Part shown: piece by piece, positions 17,155-42,264 of the stretch
Layout of the letters: each line of letters opens with the position of its first letter
Position numbering within the stretch: the first letter of the stretch is position 1
From: Waterburya sp.
GTDB lineage: Bacteria; Cyanobacteriota; Cyanobacteriia; Cyanobacteriales; Xenococcaceae
DNA: 64,000 nucleotides
Reading direction: 5' to 3'
Assembly: GCA_965217895.1 (NCBI GenBank)
Contig: CBDCJV010000002.1
Location: 3,488,001 to 3,552,000, forward strand
Translations under genes and position numbers: made by a program
The notes under the pieces: model-generated
Databases searched by the model: none
What the model saw: only the letters and a program-made list of their open reading frames with translations
Told to the model about the DNA's origin: nothing

Positions 17155-18468
17155 TCAAAAGATAAATTTCAACTGCAAACCCCATAATTGAGATTCGCTG
17201 CGTAAAATTTCAATCTGTTTAATAAATTCACGAAAATAAAAACGTCTTTCTGCTTCTGATAAATCTAACCAAAATTGAGGCAAAGAAACAGCCTGGGCGA
17301 TCGCCTGAAGATTTCCTGGAGGTAACTGGGCCATTTTGCTTTCTAGTTGAGCTATTTCGGCACGTAATTTATAGTTGCGAAGTTCGACGGTTTCTAGATC
17401 TAAAACTTCTTGTTCTAATAAATTGGGTAATTGAGCAATTGCTGATTGCTTCTGTTTAATTTGCTGTCTTAAAATATCCTCGATCACTTTATTATCTGGT
17501 AGATTTAACTGCTCTACAGCTAGAGGAAGTTCAACGCAAATTTTATTAATAGTTTGATTTAAAACTTGAGTATAAGCGATCGCTTTACACTTAGGTTTTT
17601 GAGGACATTTATGACAGCGTAGATAAAGATATTCAGCTTTTTTTTGATGCTGGGTAACACGAGCAATATTCATCGTTAGCTGACATTGTTGGCAAATAAC
17701 TAATCCTGCTAAGGAACGAGGCGCGCTAGCTGTGCGAGGAGATAAGCTACTATTGCGTCGCAACAAACGATCTATTTGTGCTGCTTCTTCACGGCTGATG
17801 ATTGAGGCATGAGTATTAGAAATCAGCTCTGCTTTTTTATACTTCAAATCCCCTCGATACACGGGGTTTGTCAGCCAGTTACGACCAGTAGAAGGAGAGA
17901 TTTTTTTGCCATAACGCTTTTCTAAATATTTAACCGCACCCCGCAATGAACCAAATAATAAAAATCGCTCGAAAAAATCTTTAACCACTGGCGCGGTGCT
18001 TTTATCAATAATATATTTGTCTTGTCCCCGACGATATCCGTAAGGAGCTTTCCCTGGAGGAGGCAAAATTTTTAAGCGATTACGAGCATGACCTTGCTTT
18101 AGCCGTGTACGCTGCTTATTTGCCTGTATTTGATCCAGGATTTTGGCTATATTAGCTTTTAAGTCGTGACTGCCGTTTTCTGACCACATCCGAGAACTGT
18201 AATCTTGTTCTGTAGCAATAACCTGGATGCCAATTGATTCTAATTGGTTTAGGCGATCGCTAATAATATTAATATTGTCTCCCAATTCTTCTAAGCGACG
18301 AAGCAATAAGATGTCTGGATGTTCGTCGTGACAGTCTGCAAGTAGTTGATTTAACTGCTGATAGTTACCTATATCTTGGTAGACTCGATCTATTTCTAAT
18401 CCCCATATTTCTTTATTTGGTGCAGGTTCTAAAAGAGGATCGCTATAAATATAGGCAATGATTTTCAT
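17155..18468 (-). CDS. Large serine-recombinase-like protein with degenerate catalytic N-terminus
   Basis: GKAPYGY, LTNPVYRG, Zn ribbon (LAGLVICQQC...YLRC); no YxRxS motif (AYIYSDP). Confidence 0.8.
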   Translation of the reverse strand: MKIIAYIYSDPLLEPAPNKEIWGLEIDRVYQDIGNYQQLNQLLADCHDEHPDILLLRRLEELGDNINIISDRLNQLESIGIQVIATEQDYSSRMWSENGSHDLKANIAKILDQIQANKQRTRLKQGHARNRLKILPPPGKAPYGYRRGQDKYIIDKSTAPVVKDFFERFLLFGSLRGAVKYLEKRYGKKISPSTGRNWLTNPVYRGDLKYKKAELISNTHASIISREEAAQIDRLLRRNSSLSPRTASAPRSLAGLVICQQCQLTMNIARVTQHQKKAEYLYLRCHKCPQKPKCKAIAYTQVLNQTINKICVELPLAVEQLNLPDNKVIEDILRQQIKQKQSAIAQLPNLLEQEVLDLETVELRNYKLRAEIAQLESKMAQLPPGNLQAIAQAVSLPQFWLDLSEAERRFYFREFIKQIEILRSESQLWGLQLKFIF

Positions 18469-28801: not shown

Positions 28802-28951
28802 ATACTTCTCAATCTAGTTGGGGAAACTACGTAAGCAAAAGCTTTTGCTACTTAAATATTAAGGTAGTCATCAAATTTGAGCGTACCTTACGATCATTTA
28901 TCCTACCCTGTTATTGCTTAATTAAATATAGCTAAATATGTTTTTAAAATA

Positions 28952-29032
28952 GCGATCGCAATATTACTGCATCGGGTTTGATCACTATTGTTTGGGAATA
29001 AAAATCAAATGAGTTTTGGGGAAAGCGATCGC
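28952..29032 (+). repeat. HIP1-to-HIP1 81-bp paralogous copy of the PIN toxin 3' end (31092-31172)
   Basis: Ungapped match; both copies begin and end with GCGATCGC; encodes DRNITASGLITIVWE*. Confidence 0.85.
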
Positions 29033-29097
29033 CTTTTCGGGGATGGAAATGTTGCACATTAATCATTGTGCCGTTACTGTAAATACACAAAAAACAA

Positions 29098-29685
29098 TTA
29101 AGCTGACAAAATATTATTCACAGTGACTTTTAATTCGGGAAAAGTCATCGAATCAACAGTTTCATCGACTGCAAATACTGTTTTGGCGTAGCTTCCTGAC
29201 TCTAAAACTAAAATTGTTATTTTCTGTTGAATAGGATCGACAATCCAATACTCAGGAATACCTATATTTTGGTATTCTGCTGTCTTTTCGCTATAGTCTC
29301 TAGACACTTGTTCAGTACCAGGACTTACTACTTCAACAGCTAACATTAAACCATCTTCAATCACGGCTGAAGAGTTACGGCGATAACTTTGCCAAACTTG
29401 ATTATTGATAACTGCAATATCGGGAATTCTGGCAGAGTTAATCCCAGTTCTAACTCCTACATCACCAGTCTTAACTTTAATATTTAATTTGTACTCTTTG
29501 GCTATAGCTTTGAAACAATCAGCAATGAAGTCAATAATATCTGAATGCAAAAAACTGGCTGGAGGCATTTCTACTAATTTACCTTTAACCAATTCATAAA
29601 CCTCATTAGTGTCATATTCACCATAGTTGAGATATTCTTGATAGGTTATTTCATTTGCGGGTGTAGTGACCATCAGGGGTTGCAT
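29098..29685 (-). CDS. Uma2 family (DUF820) endonuclease
   Basis: ELVKGKLVEMPP...H, RIPDIAV, LAVEVVSPG, K...Y, GIPEYWIVDP. Confidence 0.92.
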   Translation of the reverse strand: MQPLMVTTPANEITYQEYLNYGEYDTNEVYELVKGKLVEMPPASFLHSDIIDFIADCFKAIAKEYKLNIKVKTGDVGVRTGINSARIPDIAVINNQVWQSYRRNSSAVIEDGLMLAVEVVSPGTEQVSRDYSEKTAEYQNIGIPEYWIVDPIQQKITILVLESGSYAKTVFAVDETVDSMTFPELKVTVNNILSA

Positions 29686-29760
29686 TCAAAGGATGGTTAT
29701 GGCTTGAATATTTATAATAATACGTTATTTTATTGTCAAGATAGTTGGTCATCTAGATTG

Positions 29761-29867
29761 ATCATAGGGGCGTTTCGCGAAACGCCCCTACGGGGTTTGG
29801 CGGTGTTGGTACGGGGTCGATCGCCAATAATCATGATGATGGAAAAATAATTGGTAATGGCGATCGA
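29761..29867 (+). repeat. REP plus about 75-bp tail ending in a HIP1-like site; paralog of 33361-33467
   Basis: ataggggcgtttcgcgaaacgcccctac; tail aligns without gaps to 33361-33467. Confidence 0.8.
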
Positions 29868-29917
29868 TTCATGAGGATGCAAATGCTCTAATTTAATTGG
29901 ACTGTCGTTCTTCGAGT

Positions 29918-30194
29918 TTATTTTGCCAGCCATGATTTAATAATTGCTTGCCTAGCAACACCTAAACGAGATGCTTCTCGATCTAAGCCCTCGATCATCT
30001 ACAGGGGCAGATTAACATCGATCTTTTTTTGTTAAAGATTGACTCGCTCGGCATCTGCTAGCTCAAAATATTCCAAGATGCTTTCTTGGTTGCCGTCAAA
30101 CTTTCGCTCTAATTTATTTTTATTGCTTTTCATAAATTCTCACTTCTTCCTGTCTAGTCCTTACTGAAATAAGGCGAATAATTTCATTTCGATA
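29918..30194 (-). pseudogene. Decayed BrnT toxin 3' end plus BrnA/CopG-type antitoxin with two nonsense codons
   Basis: YRNEIIRLISVRTRQEEVRIY, then MKSNKNKLERKFDGNQESILEYF...VNL*QKKIDVNLPL*MIEGLDREASRLGVARQAIIKSWLAK* (30133..29918). Confidence 0.75.
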
Positions 30195-30269
30195 AAAATT
30201 GCCAGCATTGCAATTAGTTTTTTTAAAATTACATAACGGATATATGACGGATTAATTCTAGACCCTTTA

Positions 30270-30356
30270 TTTTTCTGCTTGTTTTAGTTCTTCTCTTAAA
30301 ACTCGACGTAGTGTTTCTTCAAGAGGTTCTTGCTGAATATGTTGTCGTAACTCTTG
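30270..30356 (-). pseudogene. C-terminal remnant of a BrnA-like antitoxin
   Basis: Translates ELRQHIQQEPLEETLRRVLREELKQA; bounds approximate. Confidence 0.5.
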
Positions 30357-30412
30357 GAAAGCGAGGATCTTTAATAAGTTTTTCTATTGTATTACCTGTG
30401 CGATACTGTGAC

Positions 30413-30450
30413 GGCGATCTCCTGTAGTGTTTATCGGGGTCATATTTCAT
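30413..30450 (-). pseudogene. 5' stub of a third RAYT gene
   Basis: MKYDPDKHYRRS, nearly identical to the start of 32723..33277; breaks at a HIP1-like site (GGCGATCTC on +). Confidence 0.75.
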
Positions 30451-30502
30451 TGGGATTGTCTAAGTTATAATTATTTCAACAATTTAAGAGAAATAATCAA
30501 AA

Positions 30503-30733
30503 ATGTTTCAGTCTGTAAAAGGAGTCTACAAACATGGCTCAATTGAATTAACAGAGATGCCAGAAAATATTGAAGAAAGCCAGGTAATCGTTACATTTCT
30601 AGAAACCAAATTAAAACAGACAAGTAAACGTATGTCTTTTGGAATGTTTACTGGCTCAAAACAATCTAATAAAGATGATTTTGAGATAGCAGAATTTACT
30701 GGAGATCCTGATGACAACTTAAACTGGCAATAA
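30503..30733 (+). CDS. Putative antitoxin of the downstream PIN toxin
   Basis: 76 aa, VKGVYKHGSIEL...VIVTFL, acidic tail; 6 nt upstream of the PIN gene. Confidence 0.7.
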   Translation: MFQSVKGVYKHGSIELTEMPENIEESQVIVTFLETKLKQTSKRMSFGMFTGSKQSNKDDFEIAEFTGDPDDNLNWQ

Positions 30734-30739
30734 ACAGTT

Positions 30740-31141
30740 ATGAGGTATGTTGTCGATACTCATGCTTTAGTCTGGTTTTTAGAAGGTAATTCGCGTTTGG
30801 GGACAAATGCCAAAACTATTCTGGCTAATTCTGATAGTCAATTAATTTTGCCTGCGATCGCTCTAGCCGAAGCAGTTTGGATTGTCGATCGTGCTAGAAC
30901 ATCAATTCCTTCAGTAGTAGATTTACTCGATGCAGTAAGTGCCGATCCTAGAATAGCAATTTATCCGCTAGACAAAGCTGTTATTGAGCAAAGTATTAGC
31001 TTGTCTGCTATTACCGAGATGCACGATCGATTAATCGTAGCTACTGCACTTATCTTAGAAAATAGAGGAGAAAATATTGCATTGTTGACTTGCGATCGCA
31101 ATATTACTGCATCGAGTTTAATCTCTATTATTTGGGAATAA
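30740..31141 (+). CDS. PIN-domain (VapC-like) toxin
   Basis: VVDTHALVW, ALAE, HDRLIVATA, LLTCD. Confidence 0.9.
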   Translation: MRYVVDTHALVWFLEGNSRLGTNAKTILANSDSQLILPAIALAEAVWIVDRARTSIPSVVDLLDAVSADPRIAIYPLDKAVIEQSISLSAITEMHDRLIVATALILENRGENIALLTCDRNITASSLISIIWE

Positions 31142-31188
31142 AAATAATATGGGTTTTGGGTAAGGCGATCGCCCCAACAGGGTTTCAT

Positions 31189-31730
31189 TTACCATTTTGA
31201 GAGGTTATCTGGATGCAACTGATCTATTGACCAGGATCGGGGATTGTTGATGATGTATTGGCGAATTTTATCCATTGCGTCCTGGTTACGGATAATGTGT
31301 TCGTAATAATTACGTTGCCATAACGTCGTTCCTGGTGCATCACGTAAGATATCGATTTTTTTGGTGGAAACGGTTTTGAATGCACCGATTAAACCTCCCA
31401 ATGGTTTACGTTGTTTATTGATTACATTGGCGTTATGCCGTTTATTTGTCGTAGGGGTTCGTCGGTAATAACCATGATTGCATGGAAATGATTCGGCATC
31501 ACAATCCATTCATCGGTGTACAAATACGGATAACGTTGACACAACCATTGCCATTCATCGGCAACGATCGCACCATATTGATTCAAAACCATTTGCCCAT
31601 CAACCACATCACCAAATAAACATTGTCGTTGATACGCACATATTGTCACAAAATACGCCCCCGATTGGCTATAATCATATCCTGGTAATCGGATTGACCG
31701 CCTGTGGTGTTTGTCGAGGTCATATTTCAT
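31189..31730 (-). pseudogene. REP-associated tyrosine transposase (RAYT), frameshifted
   Basis: HHRRSIRLPGYDYS, MPNHFH, then a frameshift near 31455 before KPLGGLIGAFK...WQRNYYEHIIR...YIINNP. Confidence 0.88.
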
Positions 31731-31917
31731 TAATTTAATCTCCATGCTTAACCCAATCCGTCATATTGACGAACTCTTCTTTTCAGATGTTCTCTTAGAG
31801 ACAAAAGCGATCGCAGAAAATAGATTCACATCAATATGACAATTTATCGCTGCAAATCAATTTAGAAAAATCAACTTTCCTCTGGCAATTTGACACTAAT
31901 ACTTTATCGCTTCGCTC

Positions 31918-32289
31918 TTATAATTTTATTAATCCAAAACTAATTTGAATTGCTCGTTCGACTTGTTTCATTGATGTCAAAGTAAGTTTACCTAACCGTT
32001 TAATAAGTCGTTTTTTATCTATAGAGCGAATTTGATTGAGCAATACTACAGAATTATTACTAAGTCCGCCTTCGGGAGGTTCAATGAAAACTTCAGTAGG
32101 ATAGAGATTGTCATCATACTGAGAAGTAATAGCTGCAACAATTGTAATAGGGCTAAATTCATTGCCGATGTCGTTTTGGAGAATTAAAGCAGGACAAGTT
32201 TTTTTTATTTCTGAACCAATAGTAGGATCGAAATTAACTAAATACACTTCACCACGTTTCGGTAACATTATTTTTGGTTTTCGAGCCAT
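31918..32289 (-). CDS. PemK/MazF family toxin
   Basis: RGEVYLVNFDPTIGSEIKKTCPALILQND, QIRSIDKKRL; the usual KTRP Arg is Cys here. Confidence 0.9.
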   Translation of the reverse strand: MARKPKIMLPKRGEVYLVNFDPTIGSEIKKTCPALILQNDIGNEFSPITIVAAITSQYDDNLYPTEVFIEPPEGGLSNNSVVLLNQIRSIDKKRLIKRLGKLTLTSMKQVERAIQISFGLIKL

Positions 32290-32513
32290 ACCTCTTCTTC
32301 GAGATCGAACCAAGTTTCAGCCAGATTTAAGTCTCTTTGCGATCTTTCAATAGCTCCCTGTCTTAACTGTTCTCTTAGTTTTTTCTTTTCAACTTCAGTA
32401 ATATAATATTTGACTGCATCGTTGATAAAACGACTGCGATCGCCTTTGGGAACTATGTGATTAAGTAATTCAATAGTTTCGTTTGGCAAAGTGATATTAA
32501 TGCGACGATTCAT
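32268..32513 (-). CDS. Ribbon-helix-helix antitoxin paired with the MazF toxin
   Basis: RRINITLP...RSRFINDAV; overlaps the toxin start. Confidence 0.85.
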   Translation of the reverse strand: MNRRINITLPNETIELLNHIVPKGDRSRFINDAVKYYITEVEKKKLREQLRQGAIERSQRDLNLAETWFDLEEEVWLENQK

Positions 32514-32611
32514 TTTCCATCTTGTTTCAATAAGTATTTTTAATACACATTATTAGTGTGTAGATTTAATATAGCAAAAATATTACAGCTTAGAATGACT
32601 TCAATGTGATG

Positions 32612-32718
32612 GTGCGATGTGTTGATAATTAACAACATTGGCGTTGTGCCGATCATTAATCGTAGGGGCGATCGCGCGTTGCGAAGCTATGCCGTAGGCT
32701 TATCGCCCTGACAGGGTT
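32612..32718 (+). repeat. Left direct repeat flanking the RAYT; its REP carries a small insert at a HIP1 site
   Basis: gtgcgatgtgttgataattaacaacattggc...gtaggggcga matches 33314-33398; insert gcgaagctatgccgtaggcttatcgc. Confidence 0.8.
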
Positions 32719-32722
32719 TTAC

Positions 32723-33277
32723 TTACCATTTTGATGGGTTATTTGGATGCAATTGATCTATTGACCAGGATTGGGGATTATTGATGATGTATTGGCGTAT
32801 TTTATTCATTGCGTCCTGGTTACGGATAATGTGTTCGTAATAATTGCGTTGCCATAACGTTGTTCCTGGCGCGTCACGTAATATATTGATTTTTTTGGTG
32901 GTGATTGATTTGAAACCTGCCATTAATGATGATAATGATTTTGGTTTCATTTGTGATGGCGAAATATCCCGTAGGGGCGAACGGCCGTTCGCCCCTACAT
33001 GGTTGTCGTTGGTAATCATTACAATTCCGTGAAAATGGTTGGGCATCATCACCCATCGATCCAATTCAATTTCCCGTCGAATTACGGATGATTTTTGCCA
33101 TTCATCGGCGACAATTGCACCATATTGATTCAAAACCATTTGCCCATCAACCACATCACCAAACAAACATTGTCGTCGATACGCGCAAATGGTCACAAAA
33201 TACGCCCCTGATTGGCTGTAATCATATCCTGGTAATCGGATCGATCGCCTGTGGTGTTTGTCGGGATCATATTTCAT
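32723..33277 (-). CDS. REP-associated tyrosine transposase (RAYT/TnpA-REP, HUH family), intact
   Basis: RRSIRL, YFVTIC, MPNHFH (HUH), WQRNYYEHIIR, YIINNP; in-frame REP at 32971-32998. Confidence 0.92.
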   Translation of the reverse strand: MKYDPDKHHRRSIRLPGYDYSQSGAYFVTICAYRRQCLFGDVVDGQMVLNQYGAIVADEWQKSSVIRREIELDRWVMMPNHFHGIVMITNDNHVGANGRSPLRDISPSQMKPKSLSSLMAGFKSITTKKINILRDAPGTTLWQRNYYEHIIRNQDAMNKIRQYIINNPQSWSIDQLHPNNPSKW

Positions 33278-33313
33278 GGATTTTAATTATGGTTGGGTTG
33301 ATTAATTGCGATC

Positions 33314-33467
33314 GTGCGATGTGTTGATAATTAACAACATTGGCATTGTGTCGATCATTTATCGTAGGGGCGAACGGCCGTTCGCCCCTACAGGGTTTGA
33401 CGGTATTCGTACAAGATTGATCGCCATTCATCGTAATGATGGGAACACGATTGGTAATGGCGATCGC
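33314..33467 (+). repeat. Right direct repeat flanking the RAYT, with REP (33364-33391) and tail to HIP1 (33460)
   Basis: Matches 32612-32718 and 29761-29867. Confidence 0.82.
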
Positions 33468-33489
33468 TTAATTATTTAATTATTTCAAT

Positions 33490-34278
33490 TTAAGATTTGC
33501 TTGTCTTGGGCGGGATAGCTTCAACTCTGCCATCAGGATAAACCTTTAATTCACCACCAAGTTTTTCAATATTTTCCTGTGCTGCTTCACGGGTCATTTT
33601 TTCTTTGCTGTTTACCCAAACTTGAAACCAAATGCCTACTTGAGCTTGGGTTGTATCAGGATTTGTAGCTAAAAATTTGACTGTCTTACTGGCTGATTGA
33701 GCTATTTTCTTATCTTTTGCAATGGTTGCCCATTCTGCGGCTTTTTCGTAGGATTTTCTAGCATTTTTTAAGTCTCCAAAAAACAAAATTTCGTCTGTTC
33801 CTTTATATAGCCAAACAAAATAGGCATAGGGCATATCAGGGGTAAGATGTTTAAGTCCTCGATCCATTAGTTCTAAGGTGCGTTTTGGAGTGCCACCAAA
33901 TACAGAAGATGCAGGAGAAATAATCATATAAGCAGTGCTAAATCGTGGGTCTTTATTGGTAATAACTTCTAGATAATCTGCACTCAAGGAATAACCCGTT
34001 TCTTTTCTAGCTTCTCCATCACCAAAATATTGCATAAACTCTAGCATTGACCAATCTGCAATCAGATTATCAAAGCCAAAGGCTGGCATTTTTTTGAGAA
34101 AAGATAATTGTATATTTTTACTTTTATCTTGTTTTAAATAAATATCTTTTGTTAAAGTTTTTTCTGATATTCTTTCAATTTGAGCAGACTGCAATTTAAT
34201 AGTTAAAAATAAACAGGATGATCCTAAACATAATGCTAAAAATTGCTTGATAAACCGAGATGATAACTTTCTGGTCAT
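33490..34278 (-). CDS. Pilin-locus membrane-anchored protein (Sll1696-like)
   Basis: N-terminal TM; FGFDNLIADW...QYFGD; helical repeats; directly downstream of two pilins. Confidence 0.65.
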   Translation of the reverse strand: MTRKLSSRFIKQFLALCLGSSCLFLTIKLQSAQIERISEKTLTKDIYLKQDKSKNIQLSFLKKMPAFGFDNLIADWSMLEFMQYFGDGEARKETGYSLSADYLEVITNKDPRFSTAYMIISPASSVFGGTPKRTLELMDRGLKHLTPDMPYAYFVWLYKGTDEILFFGDLKNARKSYEKAAEWATIAKDKKIAQSASKTVKFLATNPDTTQAQVGIWFQVWVNSKEKMTREAAQENIEKLGGELKVYPDGRVEAIPPKTSKS

Positions 34279-34318
34279 AGTCTTTAATAATAAGCAAAAT
34301 TATGAATAAATAATTTAA

Positions 34319-34834
34319 TCAAAAAACAGGAGTGGTTCCAGCAGTGCAAGCAGGAACACCCGCAGTAACGGTTGCAGGAATCGGCGCGATTGCACCATCA
34401 GCCGTGTTTTGCTCGCAGATAAATGCTTTGAAAACACCTGAAGAAGTTTGACCAACAGCAGAAGAATAATCCTTGAGGTCATTTTGAAAGGTATCTACTA
34501 CGGTTGCTATCTGAACCGCTCTTTCGGAATTAGGAGTTCCGCTATCAGCATAAGTATAATAATTACCTGCAATGCTCAACTGTAGATTAGGAATAGTAGT
34601 AAATGAGCCTGTTTGAAAACGATGAGCTTGCTGCGCTCTATTAATATTACCAAGAAAAACTTTTGCTTCTGTTTGTCTACCTTTTTCTATTTGCTTAAAA
34701 AGACTTGGCATAGCAACTGCTGATAAAATACCCAGAATTATTACTACTACTAATAATTCAATTAAGGTAAAGCCTTGGTTATTTATCTTCTTGGTTTTTC
34801 TAGACAAAATTAAGTCTAATTTATATTTAATCAT
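34319..34834 (-). CDS. Type IV pilin (PilA2-like)
   Basis: QGFTLIELLVVVIILGIL prepilin motif; C-terminal Cys pair. Confidence 0.9.
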   Translation of the reverse strand: MIKYKLDLILSRKTKKINNQGFTLIELLVVVIILGILSAVAMPSLFKQIEKGRQTEAKVFLGNINRAQQAHRFQTGSFTTIPNLQLSIAGNYYTYADSGTPNSERAVQIATVVDTFQNDLKDYSSAVGQTSSGVFKAFICEQNTADGAIAPIPATVTAGVPACTAGTTPVF

Positions 34835-34847
34835 AATAAAAAATATC

Positions 34848-34885
34848 AAAAAAAAAGAGCATTTTAGCTAAACTTAAAATGCTCT
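34848..34885 (-). terminator. Terminator/attenuator between the two pilin genes
   Basis: agagcatttta / taaaatgctct stem, followed by a T run on the minus strand. Confidence 0.75.
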
Positions 34886-34916
34886 AGATATATACTTTGA
34901 ACAGTAACAGTTAAAC

Positions 34917-35468
34917 TTACTGTTTTATAGCAGTAGATCCTGTACCACAAGTGATAGTACCAAGAGTAGCGCCTTCAACGGCATCAACGGCAGTAGTAGC
35001 TCCGTCAACTACACTGTTTTCGCAGATTAGGGCAGTGAAAGCACCAGCAACAGTTTGACCCACTGCTCCAGTGTAATCCTTAACATCAGCTTGGTAAGCG
35101 GTTCTTGCGGTAGCGTCTACAGCAGCAAATGTACCAGATGGAGTACCTTGGTTAGTAAATGCATAATTATTACCAGTACCAGGAGTAGTACCAGCATCAA
35201 GAACTATACCAATTGGTAAAGCTTCAATAGCAGAGAACGTACCATTTTGTAGTCTTTCAGCCTGTTGTGAACGATTGATAGAACCGACAGTTGTTTTTGC
35301 TTCTGACTGTCTTGCTTTACCAACTTGACCAAGTAAGTTAGGTAGAGCAATGGCAGCCAATACACCGATAATGATTACAACAACTAATAGTTCGATTAAT
35401 GTAAAACCTTTGTTGCCTTTTTTGTTATTTAGGTTTTGTAGTAATTTAGCAGTAAATACGTTATTCAT
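34917..35468 (-). CDS. pilA: Major type IV pilin (PilA1-like)
   Basis: KGFTLIELLVVVIIIGVLAAIALPNLLGQVGKARQSEAK; Cys pair; likely ATG 35468. Confidence 0.9.
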   Translation of the reverse strand: MNNVFTAKLLQNLNNKKGNKGFTLIELLVVVIIIGVLAAIALPNLLGQVGKARQSEAKTTVGSINRSQQAERLQNGTFSAIEALPIGIVLDAGTTPGTGNNYAFTNQGTPSGTFAAVDATARTAYQADVKDYTGAVGQTVAGAFTALICENSVVDGATTAVDAVEGATLGTITCGTGSTAIKQ

Positions 35469-35540
35469 GGTTATATCCTTCAATTAATAAGAGTTTGTGT
35501 TTTGGGTGTTTGTTTTAGGTTTTTCTTTCCTATTTAGAAA

Positions 35541-35546
35541 TTACCC
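35541..35546 (-). promoter_or_regulatory. Putative SigF-type promoter element GGGTAA upstream of pilA
   Basis: ttaccc on + about 75 nt upstream of the ATG; cyanobacterial pilA1 promoters are SigF-dependent with a GGGTAA element. Confidence 0.55.
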
Positions 35547-35696
35547 AAGCGATCATCAAAACATATCATCATGAAAAAGTTTTTTTTGGGAATATTTGCT
35601 AGTAATAACTAATAGTATTAACAGCGATCCAAATCACATTTTTGGTGTTGATTTGAAGAAGATTAAATTAATGGTTTTGTTTGCCCCGTTGTTTTT

Positions 35697-35998
35697 TATT
35701 TTCGGGTAATACCGATATTCCCCGTAGGGGCGAACGGCCGTTCGCCCCTACATCAATGTGCGGTGGTGCGATGTTGACATATGTAGAGAATTGGGGAAAG
35801 GCGATCGCCTGAACGTATGCAGGGTTGGTTAAAGGCGATCGCATTTGTAATGTAGAATATTTTGGGATATGCGATCGCATTTGTGGATCATTTCAATTTT
35901 CGGGTAATACCGATAAACCTCGTAGGGGCGAATGGCCATTCGCCCCTACATATGGTGCGATCGCCTGAACGTATGAAGGGTTGGGGAAAGGCGATCGC
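35697..35998 (+). repeat. Array A: HIP1-bounded ~34-bp modules plus two REP palindromes (35724, 35922)
   Basis: GCGATCGC at 35801, 35835, 35871, 35957, 35991. Confidence 0.88.
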
Positions 35999-36059
35999 TC
36001 TTTTATTTTAACTGTGTTAAATTTAAAATAGAATAATGTAGTCTACAAGCTACAAATAA

Positions 36060-36404
36060 ATGGAAGCTCAAGAAAAAACTATACTTACCTATGTAAAAGA
36101 CAACGGTTTTGTACCCTTCAACGATTGGCTTGAATCTTTGCGAGATAGAAAATCAAGAGCAATAATCAGAACTAGAATCAACCGCCTTCGGCTGGGTAAT
36201 TTGGGAGACTGTAAGAGTGTCGATGGAGGAGTAAGCGAACTAAGAATTAATTTTGGTTCTGGCTATCGAATTTATTTTGTTCAGCAAGGAAACACAGTAA
36301 TAATTTTGCTATCAGGTGGAGATAAAAGCAGTCAGGACAAAGATATTAAACAGGCAAAACTATATTGGCAAGATTATAAGAGGCGTGGTGATGAACAGAA
36401 GTAG
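36060..36404 (+). CDS. RelE/ParE-superfamily addiction module killer protein
   Basis: FNDWLESLRD, GNLGDCKSV, GVSELRI.FGSGYRIYF, LLSGGDKSSQ.KDI. Confidence 0.9.
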   Translation: MEAQEKTILTYVKDNGFVPFNDWLESLRDRKSRAIIRTRINRLRLGNLGDCKSVDGGVSELRINFGSGYRIYFVQQGNTVIILLSGGDKSSQDKDIKQAKLYWQDYKRRGDEQK

Positions 36405-36690
36405 AAGCTATCGAGAAGATTTGCTAAAATCTTTGAGCGATCCTGAAGAAGCCAGGGAATATCTTAATGCTGCTTTGGAAGATGAAAATCCCGAAGTATT
36501 TTTATTGGCACTAAAAGATATAGTTGATGCTAACAGCAGCATGAGTAAATTAGCACAGGCAACTAATCGCAATCGAGAAAGTTTGTATAAAACTCTCTCG
36601 GAAAAAGGCAATCCGCAGTTAAATAGTATTCGCAGTATTTTAAACAATTTGGGGTTTAAATTAGCGGTAGAAGTTAATTCTTCTCCCTAA
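36391..36690 (+). CDS. Addiction module antidote protein (HTH)
   Basis: EYLNAALE, RESLYKTLSEKGNP; ATG 36391 overlaps the toxin end. Confidence 0.88.
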   Translation: MNRSRSYREDLLKSLSDPEEAREYLNAALEDENPEVFLLALKDIVDANSSMSKLAQATNRNRESLYKTLSEKGNPQLNSIRSILNNLGFKLAVEVNSSP

Positions 36691-36737
36691 AATTGTTTAC
36701 ATCAAGGATTTATTTATATAGGGCGATCTCTGTCAAA

Positions 36738-37067
36738 TCATAATCCCAACCAGCTTCGTAAGGAACTTTCTAGTTTTTGAGCATCGGCTTTTGAAAGTTT
36801 ACCAATGACTTTTATCACTAGCTTTTTTTCGACTGTATATAAACCTCTTTTTGCTGCGGTAGGAACATTTAATCCTTCTTTTAACCAATCGAGAAGAACA
36901 AACTCGCCTGACAATAACCGAGTAGTTTTACTAGTTAAGGGTACGATAATAACATCTTGAGAAGTAGATGCTGTACTAACAATAACAGCAGGTCTTACCT
37001 TAGAATTAGATAAATCAGAAAAAGGATAACGGACTAGAATAATATCATTCTTCAAGTAATTTGGCAT
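36738..37067 (-). CDS. PemK/MazF family toxin
   Basis: IILVRYPFSDLSNSKVRPAVIVS, IIVPLTS. Confidence 0.88.
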   Translation of the reverse strand: MPNYLKNDIILVRYPFSDLSNSKVRPAVIVSTASTSQDVIIVPLTSKTTRLLSGEFVLLDWLKEGLNVPTAAKRGLYTVEKKLVIKVIGKLSKADAQKLESSLRSWLGL

Positions 37068-37248
37068 AAACATCATCCTCTGTGTTGTCCCAAACTTTGT
37101 CTAATGATGCTTTGCTAGATTGATTCCAAAACTCAATTTCTTCATCTGGTAGTACTGTAATTAGAACTCTCGTACCTTCTGAAAGTTCAAGCTGTTCTGG
37201 TATTTCAATTTTTCCTTGATGGACAGTAGCTAACACTGTTTTTAACAT
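37045..37248 (-). CDS. Putative antitoxin
   Basis: 67 aa, GKIEIPE...GTRVLITVL, WDNTEDDVY; overlaps the toxin start. Confidence 0.75.
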   Translation of the reverse strand: MLKTVLATVHQGKIEIPEQLELSEGTRVLITVLPDEEIEFWNQSSKASLDKVWDNTEDDVYAKLLEE

Positions 37249-37310
37249 AGGAATTTTATGGTGTGTAGATATATTTTAATTTAGCTTGTTGCAGTATAAA
37301 TTTGAGAAAT

Positions 37311-37540
37311 GCGATCGCATTTGTATGTAGAAGATTTTGGGATATGCGATCGTGATTGCGTATAAAGGGTTTAAAAAAGGCGATCGCCCTTTCTGGTAGA
37401 AAATTAATTAAAGGCGATCGCCTTGGGGATTATTTCAATTTCCTGGTAATACCGATAAACCTCGTAGGGGCGAACGGCCGTTCGCCCTTACATATGGTGC
37501 GATCGCCTGAACGTATAAAGGGTTGGGATAAGGCGATCGC
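37311..37540 (+). repeat. Array B: HIP1-bounded ~34-bp modules plus a REP (37464-37491)
   Basis: HIP1 or a variant at 37311, 37346, 37380, 37414, 37499, 37533; modules shared with array A. Confidence 0.88.
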
Positions 37541-37549
37541 ACAAATTAC

Positions 37550-37927
37550 CTACCAATTAATGACTGTTAGATCGTTAACCTTGTCTAATTGAACATCGCG
37601 AGTAACTAGCTTCGCTGATTTTTCTCTTGCCGTTGCAGCGATAACTGCATCTGGTAATTTTAAGCGGTATTGTTGACGAATAAAAATAATTTGCCCAATT
37701 AGCCATTCATCTTGACTAGATAAACTAATAACTTCTACTCGTTGTAAAAACTGTTGAAAAAGCAATATATCCGCTTCAGTTAAGCCTGAGAAAGCAAGAA
37801 ACTCGATTTGACTAATTACAGAAATTCCGACCCATTCTGCATCTTTGAGTAATTGAACCAGGCTGGAGTCTTTTTGCAGCAGCGCAATGATAGCATTGGT
37901 ATCTAACAAATAGCGATTACCATTCAT
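37550..37927 (-). CDS. PIN-domain (VapC-like) toxin
   Basis: LLDTNAII, SVISQIE, LKLPDAVIAATA, LVTRD. Confidence 0.92.
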   Translation of the reverse strand: MNGNRYLLDTNAIIALLQKDSSLVQLLKDAEWVGISVISQIEFLAFSGLTEADILLFQQFLQRVEVISLSSQDEWLIGQIIFIRQQYRLKLPDAVIAATAREKSAKLVTRDVQLDKVNDLTVINW

Positions 37928-38141
37928 CTCTTAATTTTCTTTGTGTTGCCACAGCATCACCTTGCCAGTTGAGTTCTCCTCCCAAATCTGAAAAATCATA
38001 GGTAGCTTGTTTTTGATCCTTCTCTACAACACGATTAACGACTACTACTAAATCCACTTTGCCAGCTTTTAGATTAGTTGGCAGATTAATATTCAACTGT
38101 CCTGTGTCATCAATCTCAGTTGTGAGTTTTAGAACTTCCAT
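37917..38141 (-). CDS. Putative antitoxin
   Basis: 74 aa ending QRKLRDEW; overlaps the PIN start. Confidence 0.78.
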   Translation of the reverse strand: MEVLKLTTEIDDTGQLNINLPTNLKAGKVDLVVVVNRVVEKDQKQATYDFSDLGGELNWQGDAVATQRKLRDEW

Positions 38142-38349
38142 TGTTTTCTATATTTTAGTAAAAGCTTTACTCTATGGTAGCAATTTGACAATTCAAGAAG
38201 GCGATCGCACTTTGAAAGTCAAAAGTTTTAAAGGCTTAAGCTGCATGGAGTAAAAAAGAATTATGGTTTAAGGCTTTGGGATAACAACTTTATTAAAAAT
38301 CTCGCTAGGATGAAAGCAGATCATCAGGCTCTAAGGCAGAGGAAAAGCA

Positions 38350-40239
38350 ATGAAATCCATTAAACCTTGGCAGGTAGGAATTTTAATCTTGCCGATTGCA
38401 ACTATCGTCATTTTTCTATTAGTTGCAGCAGGTTCACAAATTCATAATTGGGGTATTAATTGGATTTGGGGTGTCGTCGTCTTAGTATTTGCTTTATGGC
38501 GATGGTTACTGGTGAAGTGGACAAAGCCTCCTTTAGCTGAGATTCAAGAGGCGATAGACGAAATTAATCAGGAATTGTCACAAGAGCCAGAGATAGAAGC
38601 AGTAGGAAGTAAGGAAAAGCAATTACAAGCCTCTTTAGAACAAATTATTGCTAAAACCAGAGCCGATGAACCAGTTTGGGAAGATTGGCAGACTTTTTGG
38701 CAACGGTGTCAAGAGTTGTTAGTTGCGATCGCTCATATATATAATCCCAGTGTTAAACGTCCTTTGCTTAATATTTACATTCCCCAGGCTTACGGCTTGA
38801 TTCGTGGGACGGTAGATGACACGGATCGCATGATGCAAAAGCTTTCCCCTGTTTTAAACCGAGTATCTATCGGACAGGCTTATGAAGCTTATGAAGTTTA
38901 TCGTCGGCTAGAGCCATCGGTACGTAAACTAGGTCAGGTATTTGATTGGTCACAATGGTTAATTAATCCCGCAGTAGCAGTTGCCAAAGGAGCTACCAAG
39001 AAATTTAGCAACCAGGCAAATCAAGAACTATTGCTTAATCTGGGTCAATTAATGCGGGAAACGGCATTAAAAAATTTGGCACAACAGGCGATCGCTCTTT
39101 ATGGTGATGAAACCATTACTATTCCTGAAGTCGCCTCGAATTATGCCCTGCCGAAAACCGAAACTCAAACTCTTAAGCAAATTCTAGAGTCTGCCGAATC
39201 ACCTCAAAAAGTAGCCCAAAAGCCCGTCAATATTATTTTAGTAGGGCGTACAGGTGCAGGCAAAAGCAGCCTGATTAATACTCTGTTTCAAGCCGACAAA
39301 GCTGAAGTAGATGTTTTGCCCAGTACCGATAAAATTAAAAACTATCGTTGGCAAACTCCTAGGGGAGAAGTTCTGAATTTACTAGATACTCCTGGTTATG
39401 AACAGGTAAATCGTTCTGAATTGCGAGAAAAAGTTTTAGACTATGCAGCTACAGCAGACTTGCTATTATTGGTTACTCCCGCTCTCGATCCTGCTCTACA
39501 AATGGATCTTGATTTCTTAGAAACCTTAAAAAAGGATCTGCCTGATTTAAGTGCTGTAGGAATTGTTACCCAAGTCGATCGCCTGCGCCCAATTCGTGAG
39601 TGGAATCCTCCTTATAACTGGCAAGAAGGGACAAAACCCAAAGAAATATCTATCCGAGAGGCAACTATTTATCGCGCCGAATTATTAGGAAATATCTGCG
39701 ATTTGATTTTACCAATAGTCACAGAAGATCGCACCAGCGATCGCGCTGCTTGGGGTGCAGAAGCCTTGTCTAAGGAGTTAATCCAGGCGATCGCACCAGC
39801 TAAACAGCTTCGTCTAGCAAGATTTTTACGGGATTTGGAAGCTCGCAGCACAGCAGCAGCTAAAATTATCGATCGTTATACTCGTCAAATGGCAACTAGC
39901 CAGGGTTTAACTGCTTTTCTTAAAAGCCCCGTACTGCAATTTATTTCCACTATGACTACAGGAAATCCCACCCTCGCCTATGTTTTAGCCGAGCAAATTC
40001 CTGTAGAACAGTTGCCCGTGGTTATTGGTAAACTACAAATGGCTTATGACTTATATATGTTGCTCAAGGATGAACCCAATCTCAGCAACTTTGATTTACG
40101 TTCTTTATGGTCATTGCTTTTAGACGACAATGAAGTAGAAAATCTCAACACCTGGGCTTTTGGTCACGCTTTAGTCGAATATTGGACTAAAAATCTCAAT
40201 TCCCAGCAACTGCGCGAGCGCTATCAATTCTATATTTAG
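38350..40239 (+). CDS. Membrane-anchored GTPase family protein (Era/MMR_HSR1-like domain)
   Basis: Two N-terminal TMs; GRTGAGKSS, DTPG, TQVD. Confidence 0.85.
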   Translation: MKSIKPWQVGILILPIATIVIFLLVAAGSQIHNWGINWIWGVVVLVFALWRWLLVKWTKPPLAEIQEAIDEINQELSQEPEIEAVGSKEKQLQASLEQIIAKTRADEPVWEDWQTFWQRCQELLVAIAHIYNPSVKRPLLNIYIPQAYGLIRGTVDDTDRMMQKLSPVLNRVSIGQAYEAYEVYRRLEPSVRKLGQVFDWSQWLINPAVAVAKGATKKFSNQANQELLLNLGQLMRETALKNLAQQAIALYGDETITIPEVASNYALPKTETQTLKQILESAESPQKVAQKPVNIILVGRTGAGKSSLINTLFQADKAEVDVLPSTDKIKNYRWQTPRGEVLNLLDTPGYEQVNRSELREKVLDYAATADLLLLVTPALDPALQMDLDFLETLKKDLPDLSAVGIVTQVDRLRPIREWNPPYNWQEGTKPKEISIREATIYRAELLGNICDLILPIVTEDRTSDRAAWGAEALSKELIQAIAPAKQLRLARFLRDLEARSTAAAKIIDRYTRQMATSQGLTAFLKSPVLQFISTMTTGNPTLAYVLAEQIPVEQLPVVIGKLQMAYDLYMLLKDEPNLSNFDLRSLWSLLLDDNEVENLNTWAFGHALVEYWTKNLNSQQLRERYQFYI

Positions 40240-40500
40240 CTTCCAAGCGGTTTTACTCTCGTTAGCACTACCTAAAAAACTGGTTTCACTGCCGTCTGTA
40301 TATGTAATAATTCCTGCCTTACCGTGAATTAGCCCAAATACTTCATCGGGAAGTACCCGCACCTGCATTTTGTCCTGAGCTAGAAACTCGAACAGTCGGG
40401 CAAAGCGAGGATGAGATAGTTCTGGTAATTTTTTGGGTTTACCTGCACACCAAGAACGACGGATGGCGGTACGGGAAGCTTTAGCGGTTTCTACATCTTG
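40233..40500 (-). pseudogene. Internal fragment of a PLD-like nuclease(-helicase) defence gene
   Basis: QDVETAKA...RRSWCAGKP...FGLIHGKAGIIT...FLGSANES; HxK and GSAN PLD-type motifs; no start or helicase part. Confidence 0.65.
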
Positions 40501-40758
40501 GACGAAAAGATCGGAGTTACAAACTACTCTAATTGTTCCATCATCAAAAAAGAACTACTAGCCGCCATTGAAGTTGCTTCTGATGAAGTACTTGCCCAGA
40601 CTCTTTTCCTTAAAAAATCTTTAAACACAGTAGGAAATACATCTTTATCTAGAGAGTACCCAAGTTCACTTGATCGTTTTACAAAATTTTTGCAATCTGA
40701 AGGTTTTTATGAAGATGAGTATATTGATCGCTGCATGGCAGAAATCGAAAATAAATGA
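40498..40758 (+). CDS. Hypothetical protein or possible antitoxin remnant
   Basis: Stop overlaps the PIN start (ATGA); start uncertain. Confidence 0.4.
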   Translation: MDEKIGVTNYSNCSIIKKELLAAIEVASDEVLAQTLFLKKSLNTVGNTSLSREYPSSLDRFTKFLQSEGFYEDEYIDRCMAEIENK

Positions 40759-41294
40759 TTGTCGCAGTTATTGATTCCTGCATCATTTTCGGAATGCCTT
40801 TGTGCGATACACTTTTGAGAGCCGCAGAACAAAATTTATATCGAATTATTCTATTTCAAAAAATACTTGAAGATGCCACTCGCAACATGGTTATCAAAAG
40901 TAAACTCAAAAGCGATCAAGAGCAATATTACCAGCAACAAATTCTAAATGCCTTTGCCGATTGTTTTGTAGAAGCTCCACCAAACCTGATTGAATCGATA
41001 ACTAATGCCACATCTGATCGCCACGTTGCGGCAACTGCGATCGCTAGCAATGCTAGTTATATTGTAACTTTCAATCTCAAAGATTTTTCTCAGACTTCCC
41101 TCGCTAACTACGATCTCGATGCCATACACCCCGATCTGTTTTTAAAATTATTATGCGATCGATGGGGAGATGAAAGATTATACCGACTGATTTGTCAACA
41201 ATCGAACGCTCTCCAAAATCCCCCTATTTCTCCTGAGTTACTTTTGAATAAACTAGCGCGTCAACAATGCGATCATTCAAATTTGAAGTTTTGA
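40755..41294 (+). CDS. PIN-domain protein
   Basis: AVIDSCII, DRHVAATAI, IVTFNLKDF, HPDLFL. Confidence 0.85.
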   Translation: MIVAVIDSCIIFGMPLCDTLLRAAEQNLYRIILFQKILEDATRNMVIKSKLKSDQEQYYQQQILNAFADCFVEAPPNLIESITNATSDRHVAATAIASNASYIVTFNLKDFSQTSLANYDLDAIHPDLFLKLLCDRWGDERLYRLICQQSNALQNPPISPELLLNKLARQQCDHSNLKF

Positions 41295-41649
41295 TTTATT
41301 TTGTCTTGCGGAGCAAATTCTCCTCTATAGAGGCGATGTCCAGTTTTCCTATGAGATCGCCATAAATAACAATTATCTAATAGTCACCGAATGTTCTAGA
41401 TTTTCCGAGAAGGAAGCCCAATCAATTGCACCTTCGGTATCGGCTTTTGGAGATGCCCTAATTTTGCTCAAATCTGGTTTATAAGTTACTCTGACGTACT
41501 CGGTAAGGCTTCTTGATGTCGAATGTATCTTGCCACCTGTTCGGCTTTTACCTTGAATGATTCACCAGTAGAAAGCCAAGTCGCAAAGGTTTCTTGTAGC
41601 CCTTCTTCTCGTTCTTCTCCAGTCAAAGATTCATCGTCGGCGATCGCAC

Positions 41650-42264
41650 TAATCGCATCATCTACAACTAACCCTGTGGCTAGAATCAAGCCAAACAAAG
41701 TCAAACTATTGAGTGAAAATCCAAAGATAAAAGCAAACCCCAATGCACCTATTAGTGATACGGGAATTGCCACGGCGGGAATAACGGTGGTGCGCCAATC
41801 TTGGAGGAAGATAAAGATAATGATGATTACTAGAGCGATCGCCTGAAGTAAGGTTATAAAAATCTCAAAATTTTAACTACCAAATTTTCAAACTCAGCTT
41901 TACCTTGAAGACGACCTTGAATCTTAACTGGTAGCTCATAATCTTGATCTCCAGGGTTAGGCTCTTGACCGATAGAACCTGCACCCACTACTACGTTTTG
42001 CGAACTAACCGCTTGAGATACATCCAATACGGTTAATCCTCTAGCTGCTAAAGCTTGAGAGTCTAGCCAGAGACGCATCGCATTTTGTTTTGCGCCGAAT
42101 ACGGTAACGTCTCCAACCCCCTCAATCCGCTTTAAAACATTAGTGACATTGGCATCAACATAGTTACTAACGAAAATGTCATTGTAGACTCCTTTTTCAC
42201 TATAAATACCAAAGATCAAGAGGATGCTACTAGATGCTGCTTCAGTAGTAACCCCCCAAGTTTG
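41650..42264 (-). pseudogene. RND (AcrB-like) efflux permease fragments
   Basis: GVGDVTVFG...AMRLWLD, internal deletion, then FLQDWRTTVIPAVAIPVSLIG...GLVVDDAI; truncated at both ends. Confidence 0.85.

Follow-up and report, generated by a model that had tools for sequence, protein, structure and literature searches.

Short HIP1-bounded units link toxin-antitoxin cassettes in a variable array beside a type IV pilin gene of Waterburya sp.

We analysed a 64,000-nucleotide stretch of the cyanobacterium Waterburya sp. (contig CBDCJV010000002.1, positions 3,488,001 to 3,552,000; hereafter the window), in which copies of the octamer HIP1 (highly iterated palindrome 1) bound both short repeated units and two-gene toxin-antitoxin cassettes next to a type IV pilin gene. 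Comparison with related genomes gives good support to the conclusion that the short units serve as linkers between HIP1-bounded toxin-antitoxin cassettes in a variable array. The cassettes end at HIP1, change their order, hold their orientation and cross lineages as units; insertions elsewhere in the genome are surrounded by HIP1-ended duplications, and the linkers are specific to their locus. We hypothesize, judging the balance to be about even, that host recombination joins HIP1 to HIP1 while short neighbouring homology, here the linkers, sets place and direction.

To the right of the pilin gene follow a leader with a repetitive extragenic palindrome (REP), array A, cassette H, a mutated HIP1 at 36723, cassette C, array B, cassette A and a HIP1 at 38201. 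The window thus holds three HIP1-bounded toxin-antitoxin cassettes, the first two divided by the mutated HIP1 at 36723, with cassette gene ends 7-62 bp from HIP1. The features are as follows.

34917..35483, minus strand: type IV pilin gene (Pfam Pilin_GH, N_methyl)
35724..35751, no strand: GTAG-type REP hairpin of the leader REP module, one of 32 such hairpins in the genome
35768..35800, plus strand: first linker unit, with a degenerate HIP1 at its start; the highest-scoring unit end genome-wide
35801..35834, plus strand: linker U1, 34 bp including one HIP1
35835..35870, plus strand: linker U2, 36 bp
35871..35956, plus strand: REP-carrying linker module, 86 bp (REP at 35922-35949)
35957..35990, plus strand: linker U1, second copy
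35991..36722, plus strand: cassette H, with a RelE/ParE-family (HigB-like) toxin (36060-36404) and an HI1420 antidote (36391-36690)
36723..36730, no strand: hidden joint, a HIP1 with one change (GCGATCTC), intact in the relative G035
36723..37310, minus strand: cassette C, with a PemK/MazF toxin (36738-37076, PF02452) and a putative antitoxin (37045-37248)
37311..37345, plus strand: linker U2, second copy, 35 bp
37346..37379, plus strand: diverged U1-like linker, starting at a variant HIP1
37380..37413, plus strand: third linker type, 34 bp
37414..37498, plus strand: REP-carrying linker module, 85 bp (REP at 37464-37491)
37499..37532, plus strand: linker U1, third copy
37533..38208, minus strand: cassette A, with a PIN toxin (37550-37927, PF01850), a putative antitoxin (37917-38141) and the closing HIP1 at 38201

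The genes of cassette H match TIGR02683 and TIGR02684 above cut-off, and its left joint is the same in the relative G017, at 92% identity. The putative antitoxin of cassette C was assigned by position and has no family match; cassette A is present in the arrays of five relatives. Rfam gave no match within 28000-42000, and promoter and terminator scans stayed at chance level (8 vs 8.7 and 4 vs 2.3).

A preliminary description of the window had reported two arrays of HIP1-bounded modules, and its coordinates hold. Exact HIP1 copies start at 35801, 35835, 35871, 35957, 35991, 37311, 37380, 37414, 37499 and 37533, and the variant GCGATCGT lies at 37346, giving spacings of 34, 36, 86 and 34 bp in array A and of 35, 34, 34, 85 and 34 bp in array B. 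The U1 copies match one another at 21-23 of 26 positions and the diverged copy at 37354 matches them at 15-17 of 26; U2 and the REP-carrying modules are likewise found where they had been placed. The hidden joint at 36723 and the third cassette (37533-38208) are additions to that description. Its prediction of a genome-wide peak of HIP1 spacings at 34-36 bp is not borne out: the genome (5.29 Mb, 39% GC, 5906 HIP1 sites) has 15 such spacings where about 19 are expected, five of the 15 falling in these 1.8 kb. Clusters of at least four HIP1 with gaps of at most 90 bp number only five on the chromosome, two of them being arrays A and B, and neither U1 nor U2 has a HIP1-flanked near copy elsewhere in the genome.

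We fetched the orthologous region from the genus and read cassette orders by hand, some cassette instances being partial. The left-hand neighbour of the array stays constant in the genus: it is the pilin gene, which precedes the array at eight relatives' loci and is likely a homology anchor for it. The region of the relatives is a variable array of two-gene cassettes, with the families PIN (two kinds), HicAB, PemK (two kinds), HepT/MntA, RelE, DUF4926/DUF6883, HigBA-like, DUF4160/DUF2442 and DUF433/DUF5615, as well as a DUF559 gene. Opposite orders are found for 7 of the 23 cassette pairs seen at least twice (10 genomes, 42 instances, 12 families), and all 68 alignments of at least 250 bp between ten arrays are same-strand, with no cassette inverted. 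Most families retain the same left HIP1 joint behind differing neighbours, and no consistent growth end is visible in the cassette orders.

Cassette C is 98.3% identical in G035 over 596 of 596 bp, from HIP1 to HIP1, against a host background of 81% in uppP and 78% in the leader; it is only 91% identical in G019 and G020, where uppP is 91% and 88% identical, respectively. Cassette A is 96% identical to that of G017 over 495 bp and 78-79% identical to those of other relatives. These contrasts between cassette and host identity show that single cassettes pass between lineages. Six relatives carry homologues of cassette H at different loci, where no linkers are seen.

Two further observations concern the relatives' arrays. 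In G020:C1 (L024, L025), copies of an insertion sequence that also occurs many times in the window's genome (G000) part the array from pilA. At about 11520-13430 of L026 (G023:C1), 13 tandem HIP1-bounded modules of 149-163 bp with C-run/G-run hairpins directly adjoin pilA, ahead of a DUF559 gene, and at least three copies are present in L023.

The preliminary description had set a single segmental duplication against its own reading. Duplication of one intergenic block followed by decay would fit the 118-bp direct repeat, 92% identical, that the REP module at 37414 and the next U1 form with 35881-35998 and that flanks the two-cassette block. However, U2 stands directly before the REP module in array A and two units off in array B, U1 is present in three copies, and the cassettes of relatives are shuffled. 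These conflicts of order rule out a single duplication as the source of both arrays, and we regard this explanation as extremely improbable.

The HIP1 joint is also found at insertions outside the array. We assembled a set of local duplications (two-copy repeats of 40-600 bp with copies no more than 10 kb from each other; 85 unique ones left of 235 raw after removal of 150 clustered or multi-copy repeats). Thirteen of the 85 have a start or an end no more than 4 bp from HIP1 in each copy, where 1.7 are expected, and three AT-rich palindromes taken as control account for no duplication ends. Two of the thirteen lie in the window; seven enclose a gene of a toxin-antitoxin family, and six enclose other cargo (for example a porin with a permease, MerR, or a fragment with leucine-rich repeats). 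Similarity around HIP1 pairs is one-sided or two-sided in the ratio 45:25, as compared with 242:1253 for control octamers. At the uppP locus (G000:C2:4470721-4471611, L134), the MazEF pair is inserted at the 3' end of uppP with a copy of the uppP tail on either side, both tails starting at a HIP1 within the gene; all 29 relatives examined (of 36 matching) have one tail, and 27 of them keep the in-gene HIP1.

A second array (array 2; G000:C2:2380200-2385600, L131), near glnB, holds BrnTA, HicA, DUF433/DUF5615 and DUF29. Its linkers are of their own types, of 32-33 bp and 17-19 bp, unlike those of the window. By eye, short HIP1-bounded linkers of the array-2 type are present in relatives at the nine loci inspected of 13, and the order differs in G017. 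In G020:C1 (L143), the BrnTA cassette of array 2 is found at another site, after three identical 33-bp HIP1-bounded copies.

We propose the following scheme for HIP1 joining steered by homology. Incoming DNA, probably acquired by natural transformation or supplied as an excised HIP1-HIP1 circle, would pair with the locus already present, using a linker or part of a host gene, and its far end would be joined at HIP1, probably aided by HIP1 methylation. This would leave the cargo between two copies of a duplicated sequence whose start or end coincides exactly with HIP1. Where a HIP1 stands alone, the sequence duplicated would be a gene tail of 40-290 bp, and at two HIP1 about 30 bp apart it would be a linker, so that each round may add linkers and hence more landing places. 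Being small and self-expressing, and not easily lost, toxin-antitoxin pairs would pile up. Since a palindrome alone cannot fix direction, the neighbouring sequence would set it; because this neighbour is a host-gene tail at solo insertions and an array-specific linker in arrays, shared homology is the simplest common factor. The scheme agrees with reporter data in which integration increased 7-fold when a homology arm was given 8 bp of HIP1 at its end, and 83-fold if the HIP1 was methylated (10.1101/2024.09.10.611283). The genome contains an intact comEC, pilin genes adjoin the array, and there are several C5 methyltransferases.

Several observations weigh against this scheme. Our searches of the genome found no joining enzyme, and no event was caught in progress. 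The dprA gene is split over two frames (G000:C2:1742166-1742796), which is either a real frameshift or an assembly error. No long anchor was kept when cassette C moved, and 26-34 bp is a short length for RecA. Most of the local duplications (72 of 85) end away from HIP1, alleles of one cassette can have joints that differ by as much as about 30 bp, and in G020 three cassettes of array 2 are spaced 40-85 kb from one another. Of the alignment ends, 15 of 66 on the left and 15 of 62 on the right come within 5 bp of HIP1 in both partners, with a background of 7% per position; this low share arises in part because shared linkers lengthen the alignments. The linkers keep a recognisable core, their array strand is G-rich (G 161 vs C 35) in 26 of 27 units, and similar polar units adjoin toxin-antitoxin genes in distant lineages; neutral copying gives no account of these features. 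Homology-steered joining leaves the conserved core and the G-rich strand unexplained, which keeps alive the alternative of a dedicated site, considered below.

HIP1 could also act as a passive hot spot, that is, as the commonest GC-rich 8-bp microhomology for illegitimate recombination or slippage, with no step specific to HIP1 or to methylation. Its copy number is more than six times that of the next palindrome in the genome, and HIP1 pairs are therefore far more available; the cassette alleles are imprecise at the joint, and the title of Robinson 1997, as listed in PMC4390886, speaks of HIP1 excision at similar frequency in E. coli. However, methylation lifts the effect of a terminal HIP1 about 12-fold (10.1101/2024.09.10.611283), a unit running exactly from HIP1 to HIP1 has recently moved across lineages, and HIP1 joints are near-universal across the 12 cassette families. 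We therefore consider a purely passive role unlikely.

The linker sequence was examined with a matrix trained on 27 units (30-36 bp) from relatives alone, whose core is near ATGTAGAGAATTT. Among 11,810 HIP1 half-sites of the genome, the matrix ranks five window sites 1, 3, 5, 11 and 19, all on the plus strand, and the remaining array sites lower (146, 374 and 1462), so that the unit motif is confined to the array locus in this genome. The preliminary description had seen the ttggg motif of the units at 29016 and 31156 as well. The motif is present there, but both copies fall within an 81-bp duplicated tail of a PIN gene (72 of 81 positions identical), and the two sites score weakly (ranks 260 and 103). 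A T-rich start and purine-rich end was rejected as a signature of the units, being shared by HIP1 flanks generally. No GC skew on the scale of a replichore was found that would account for linker polarity. The units fold as hairpins because two copies of the HIP1 palindrome pair; in 35 distinct units there is no attC-like covariation beside the HIP1 stems, and stem-adjacent pairing does not exceed that of shuffled sequences (10 vs 13.2, 22 vs 22.6, 24 vs 25.0, 11 vs 15.0).

When other genomes were scanned for the units, as the preliminary description had proposed, the strict unit pattern gave 12 loci, spread over only 8 genomes in a set of 185,579 species; five of them have such arrays. The units occur in records named Waterburya, Pleurocapsa and unassigned metagenome-assembled genomes. 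Three matches lie outside the genus: in a Calothrix record, 5-6 similar units of 35 bp adjoin a YafQ pair; in a Pseudanabaena record, a single unit adjoins BrnT; and the match in Leptolyngbyaceae falls in coding sequence and was rejected as an array. The same pattern matched none of 401 phylum genomes, the window's own among them, and is therefore insensitive. A half-site pattern matched 23 of 61 family genomes; among the 16 loci fetched, only L053 and L054 are arrays, L056 is a lone unit and the others are chance matches.

Of 301 class genomes, 125 contain three HIP1 in a row with spacers of 20-30 nt, and many of these runs are chance products of GC-rich, HIP1-dense genomes. Taking the first run of each genome (30 loci; 108 of 124 open reading frames scanned), genes of the toxin-antitoxin, XisHI, Uma2 or DUF559 kind lie no more than 1.5 kb away from 17 of 30. 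Toxin-antitoxin-type genes adjoin 13 of 20 triple-run loci and 3 of 20 matched controls placed 15 kb away in 20 genomes (42 of 67 open reading frames, those of at most 262 aa, scanned; p 0.003), and for strict toxin-antitoxin families the counts are 9 and 2 (p 0.03). The unit sequences differ by lineage, several being C-free on one strand; toxin-antitoxin and other triple-run loci do not differ significantly in polarity (p 0.096). In other families of the order (L105, L107, L109 and L110), HIP1 units of 24-33 bp in tandem were also seen beside toxin-antitoxin genes, with no C on one strand (G:C 96:0, 33:0, 60:0 and 22:0).

A dedicated, trans-acting site-specific system would give these patterns a different meaning: the polar G-rich linker with its HIP1 would be the attachment site of a host-encoded recombinase, for example a large serine recombinase-like protein that moves cassette circles in the manner of integrons, and the short units would be empty cassettes. 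The preliminary description had leaned this way, reading the units as oriented recombination sites or empty cassettes. From that proposal we retain HIP1 as the joint, the orientation of the units and modular exchange, given that cassette order varies among relatives while polarity is fixed. Recognition of the units by a specific recombinase did not find support, as the linkers of array 2 differ, solo insertions use a host-gene copy and no unit, and there is neither hairpin covariation nor a linked integrase. The fixed polarity with shuffled order, the conserved linker core, the tandem Calothrix units and the association of triple runs with toxin-antitoxin-type genes do speak for a dedicated recombinase. 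The two loci of one genome nevertheless differ in linker family, solo insertions have no linker, the strict pattern is restricted to 8 genomes, and the polarity difference across lineages falls short of significance.

The search for an enzyme bears on the same alternative. For IntI, the best score of TIGR02249 in the whole genome is 54.7 bits, as compared with a cut-off of 265; tyrosine recombinases give 10 matches in the genome, none of them within the window. One gene of the window is a weak candidate for a trans-acting enzyme outside the array:

17155..18468, minus strand: large serine recombinase-like gene, conserved in cyanobacteria, single-copy, 17 kb from the array

At its N-terminus the residues S, S, T, S and C stand where the catalytic motif is expected, and we take the protein to lack the usual N-terminal catalytic motif. 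Of 121 class genomes, 82 have the gene; it was found in none of 8 from family f37 and in none of 7 from genus g99, although triple runs occur in 25 of 25 genomes of the latter. A recombinase-family protein, Synpcc7942_1166, and RadC are among the genes correlated with HIP1 in the available part of PMC13756078, which favours a dedicated enzyme. A contig from a public run (X7, depth 2.3) joins REP-U1-HIP1 (37539) to the start of cassette C (36730), 810 bp back; this is the junction expected of a circle, and it represents either another cassette order or a circle junction. Two further joints (X1 and X2, depth 119-127) were rejected as variants of the window array: their letters match junctions of a relative's array (L024), and they therefore give no evidence of excision in the window's strain. 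Overall, we consider a dedicated recombinase doubtful, though less so than a passive hot spot.

To the left of the pilins, 28952-33467 is a second variable HIP1-jointed stretch (Uma2, PIN, PemK, two RAYT copies and an orphan PIN tail); its repeats do not resemble the linkers on the right. It includes the following features.

28952..29032, plus strand: orphan copy of the PIN gene tail at 31092-31172, cut at HIP1 on both sides
32723..33277, minus strand: RAYT (REP-associated tyrosine transposase)-like Y1 transposase flanked by REPs (PF01797; NF047646 65.5 bits, below the cut-off of 80)

Together with a frameshifted second copy at 31189-31745, this gene represents the sole RAYT copies in the genome. 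Such an HUH Y1 transposase could cut and rejoin single-stranded DNA at REP modules and linkers and thereby move cassettes. The two copies sit 2-4 kb away from the array, REP modules are interspersed in it, GTAG occurs within the linker core, and RAYT binds single-stranded REP DNA according to the available text of PMC3733652. However, RAYT was not seen in the fetched pilin loci of G017, G019, G023 and G022, all of which have long arrays, there is none at array 2 or at the solo insertions, and REP is absent from most joints. It is quite improbable that RAYT moves the cassettes; the RAYT-like gene is a candidate mover of REPs only.

Natural substrates with a clear footprint, namely HIP1-cut cassettes, linkers, and empty and filled sites, are offered by this locus, and one genome holds arrays and solo insertions together, so that the role of HIP1 can be reduced to a simple reporter test. 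In the available parts of PMC13756078 and PMC5861425, HIP1 appears as a sequence that has gone three decades without a demonstrated role; homology-steered joining would give the palindrome a testable role in gene capture and would provide an integrase-free route to toxin-antitoxin accumulation in cyanobacteria. It also suggests one-arm integration for strain engineering. We speculate further, as a tentative idea that we hold to be possible and less than probable, that methylated HIP1 is a programmed joining site for gene capture throughout the phylum and that the polar G-rich linkers are selected landing pads for a host protein, which would amount to a distributed integron, integrase-free or trans-catalysed. 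If true, this would be the long-sought function of HIP1, and any locus could turn into a cassette array.

HIP1 has been described as a recombination point before (Akiyama 1998 and Robinson 1997, as cited in the available parts of PMC4390886 and PMC9239245), and Kamoku and Nielsen (10.1101/2024.09.10.611283) report that methylation raises the efficiency. As far as these sources are available, the earlier results concern plasmids and reporters, with no natural arrays, linkers or HIP1-ended tail duplications, and the accessible text of PMC9239245 brings up recombination at HIP1 only in connection with an inversion and a plasmid fusion. We found no account of HIP1-jointed cassette arrays in the literature searched, subscription journals and preprint supplements being outside its reach.

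The array resembles integrons and attC-site clusters without an integron integrase (CALIN), which, in the accessible parts of PMC4889954 and PMC12614218, have tandem one- or two-gene cassettes of variable order and fixed orientation, rich in toxin-antitoxin genes, with single cassettes exchanged horizontally and a possible tie to natural transformation. Variable order with fixed orientation is found here as well. Unlike in integrons and CALIN, there is no intI and no attC-type covarying hairpin; the joints are a host palindrome, the linkers vary by locus, the cassettes face both ways, and solo insertions within core genes show the same type of joint.

Homology-facilitated illegitimate recombination, in which RecA-anchored homology on one side is combined with 3-10 bp of microhomology on the other during transformation, is described in the available part of PMC6382021, which does not describe it for cyanobacteria. 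The 13 HIP1-ended duplications and the uppP site, empty in all relatives examined, have the footprint of an anchor plus microhomology, and integration of a circle would leave the same footprint. Here, however, the second joint is a fixed, abundant and methylated octamer, the footprint is a duplication that runs from this octamer, and arrays would be built by repeated rounds. If the chemistry is anchor-plus-microhomology joining, the system would be a variant of homology-facilitated illegitimate recombination.

SDR5 (Elhai et al. 2008), like the linkers, is a tiny element linked to HIP1; as given in the available parts of PMC4390886, PMC5861425 and PMC13756078, it measures 21 nt and sits within a single HIP1, between bases 3 and 4. 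The linkers instead have 22-28 nt, lie between two whole HIP1 and do not belong to SDR5 as these sources present it. HIP1-splitting 21-nt inserts resembling SDR5 within relatives' arrays form a separate layer. At L022:9330, L023:11279 and position 32674 of the window, SDR5-like inserts of 21-25 nt within linkers split a HIP1-like site. The likeness to REPtrons, judged by the available part of PMC3733652, lies in the hairpins of the 85-86 bp modules, which are GTAG REPs, and in the RAYT-like gene close by. A RAYT flanked by GTAG REPs is found at 32723-33277, as a neighbour of the array and not in its linkers; the cassettes are bounded by HIP1, not by REPs, and the REPs are passengers in some linkers. 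The architecture fits neither integrons nor SDR5 nor REPtrons, and new here is the link, within one genome, between cassette arrays and solo HIP1-ended insertions.

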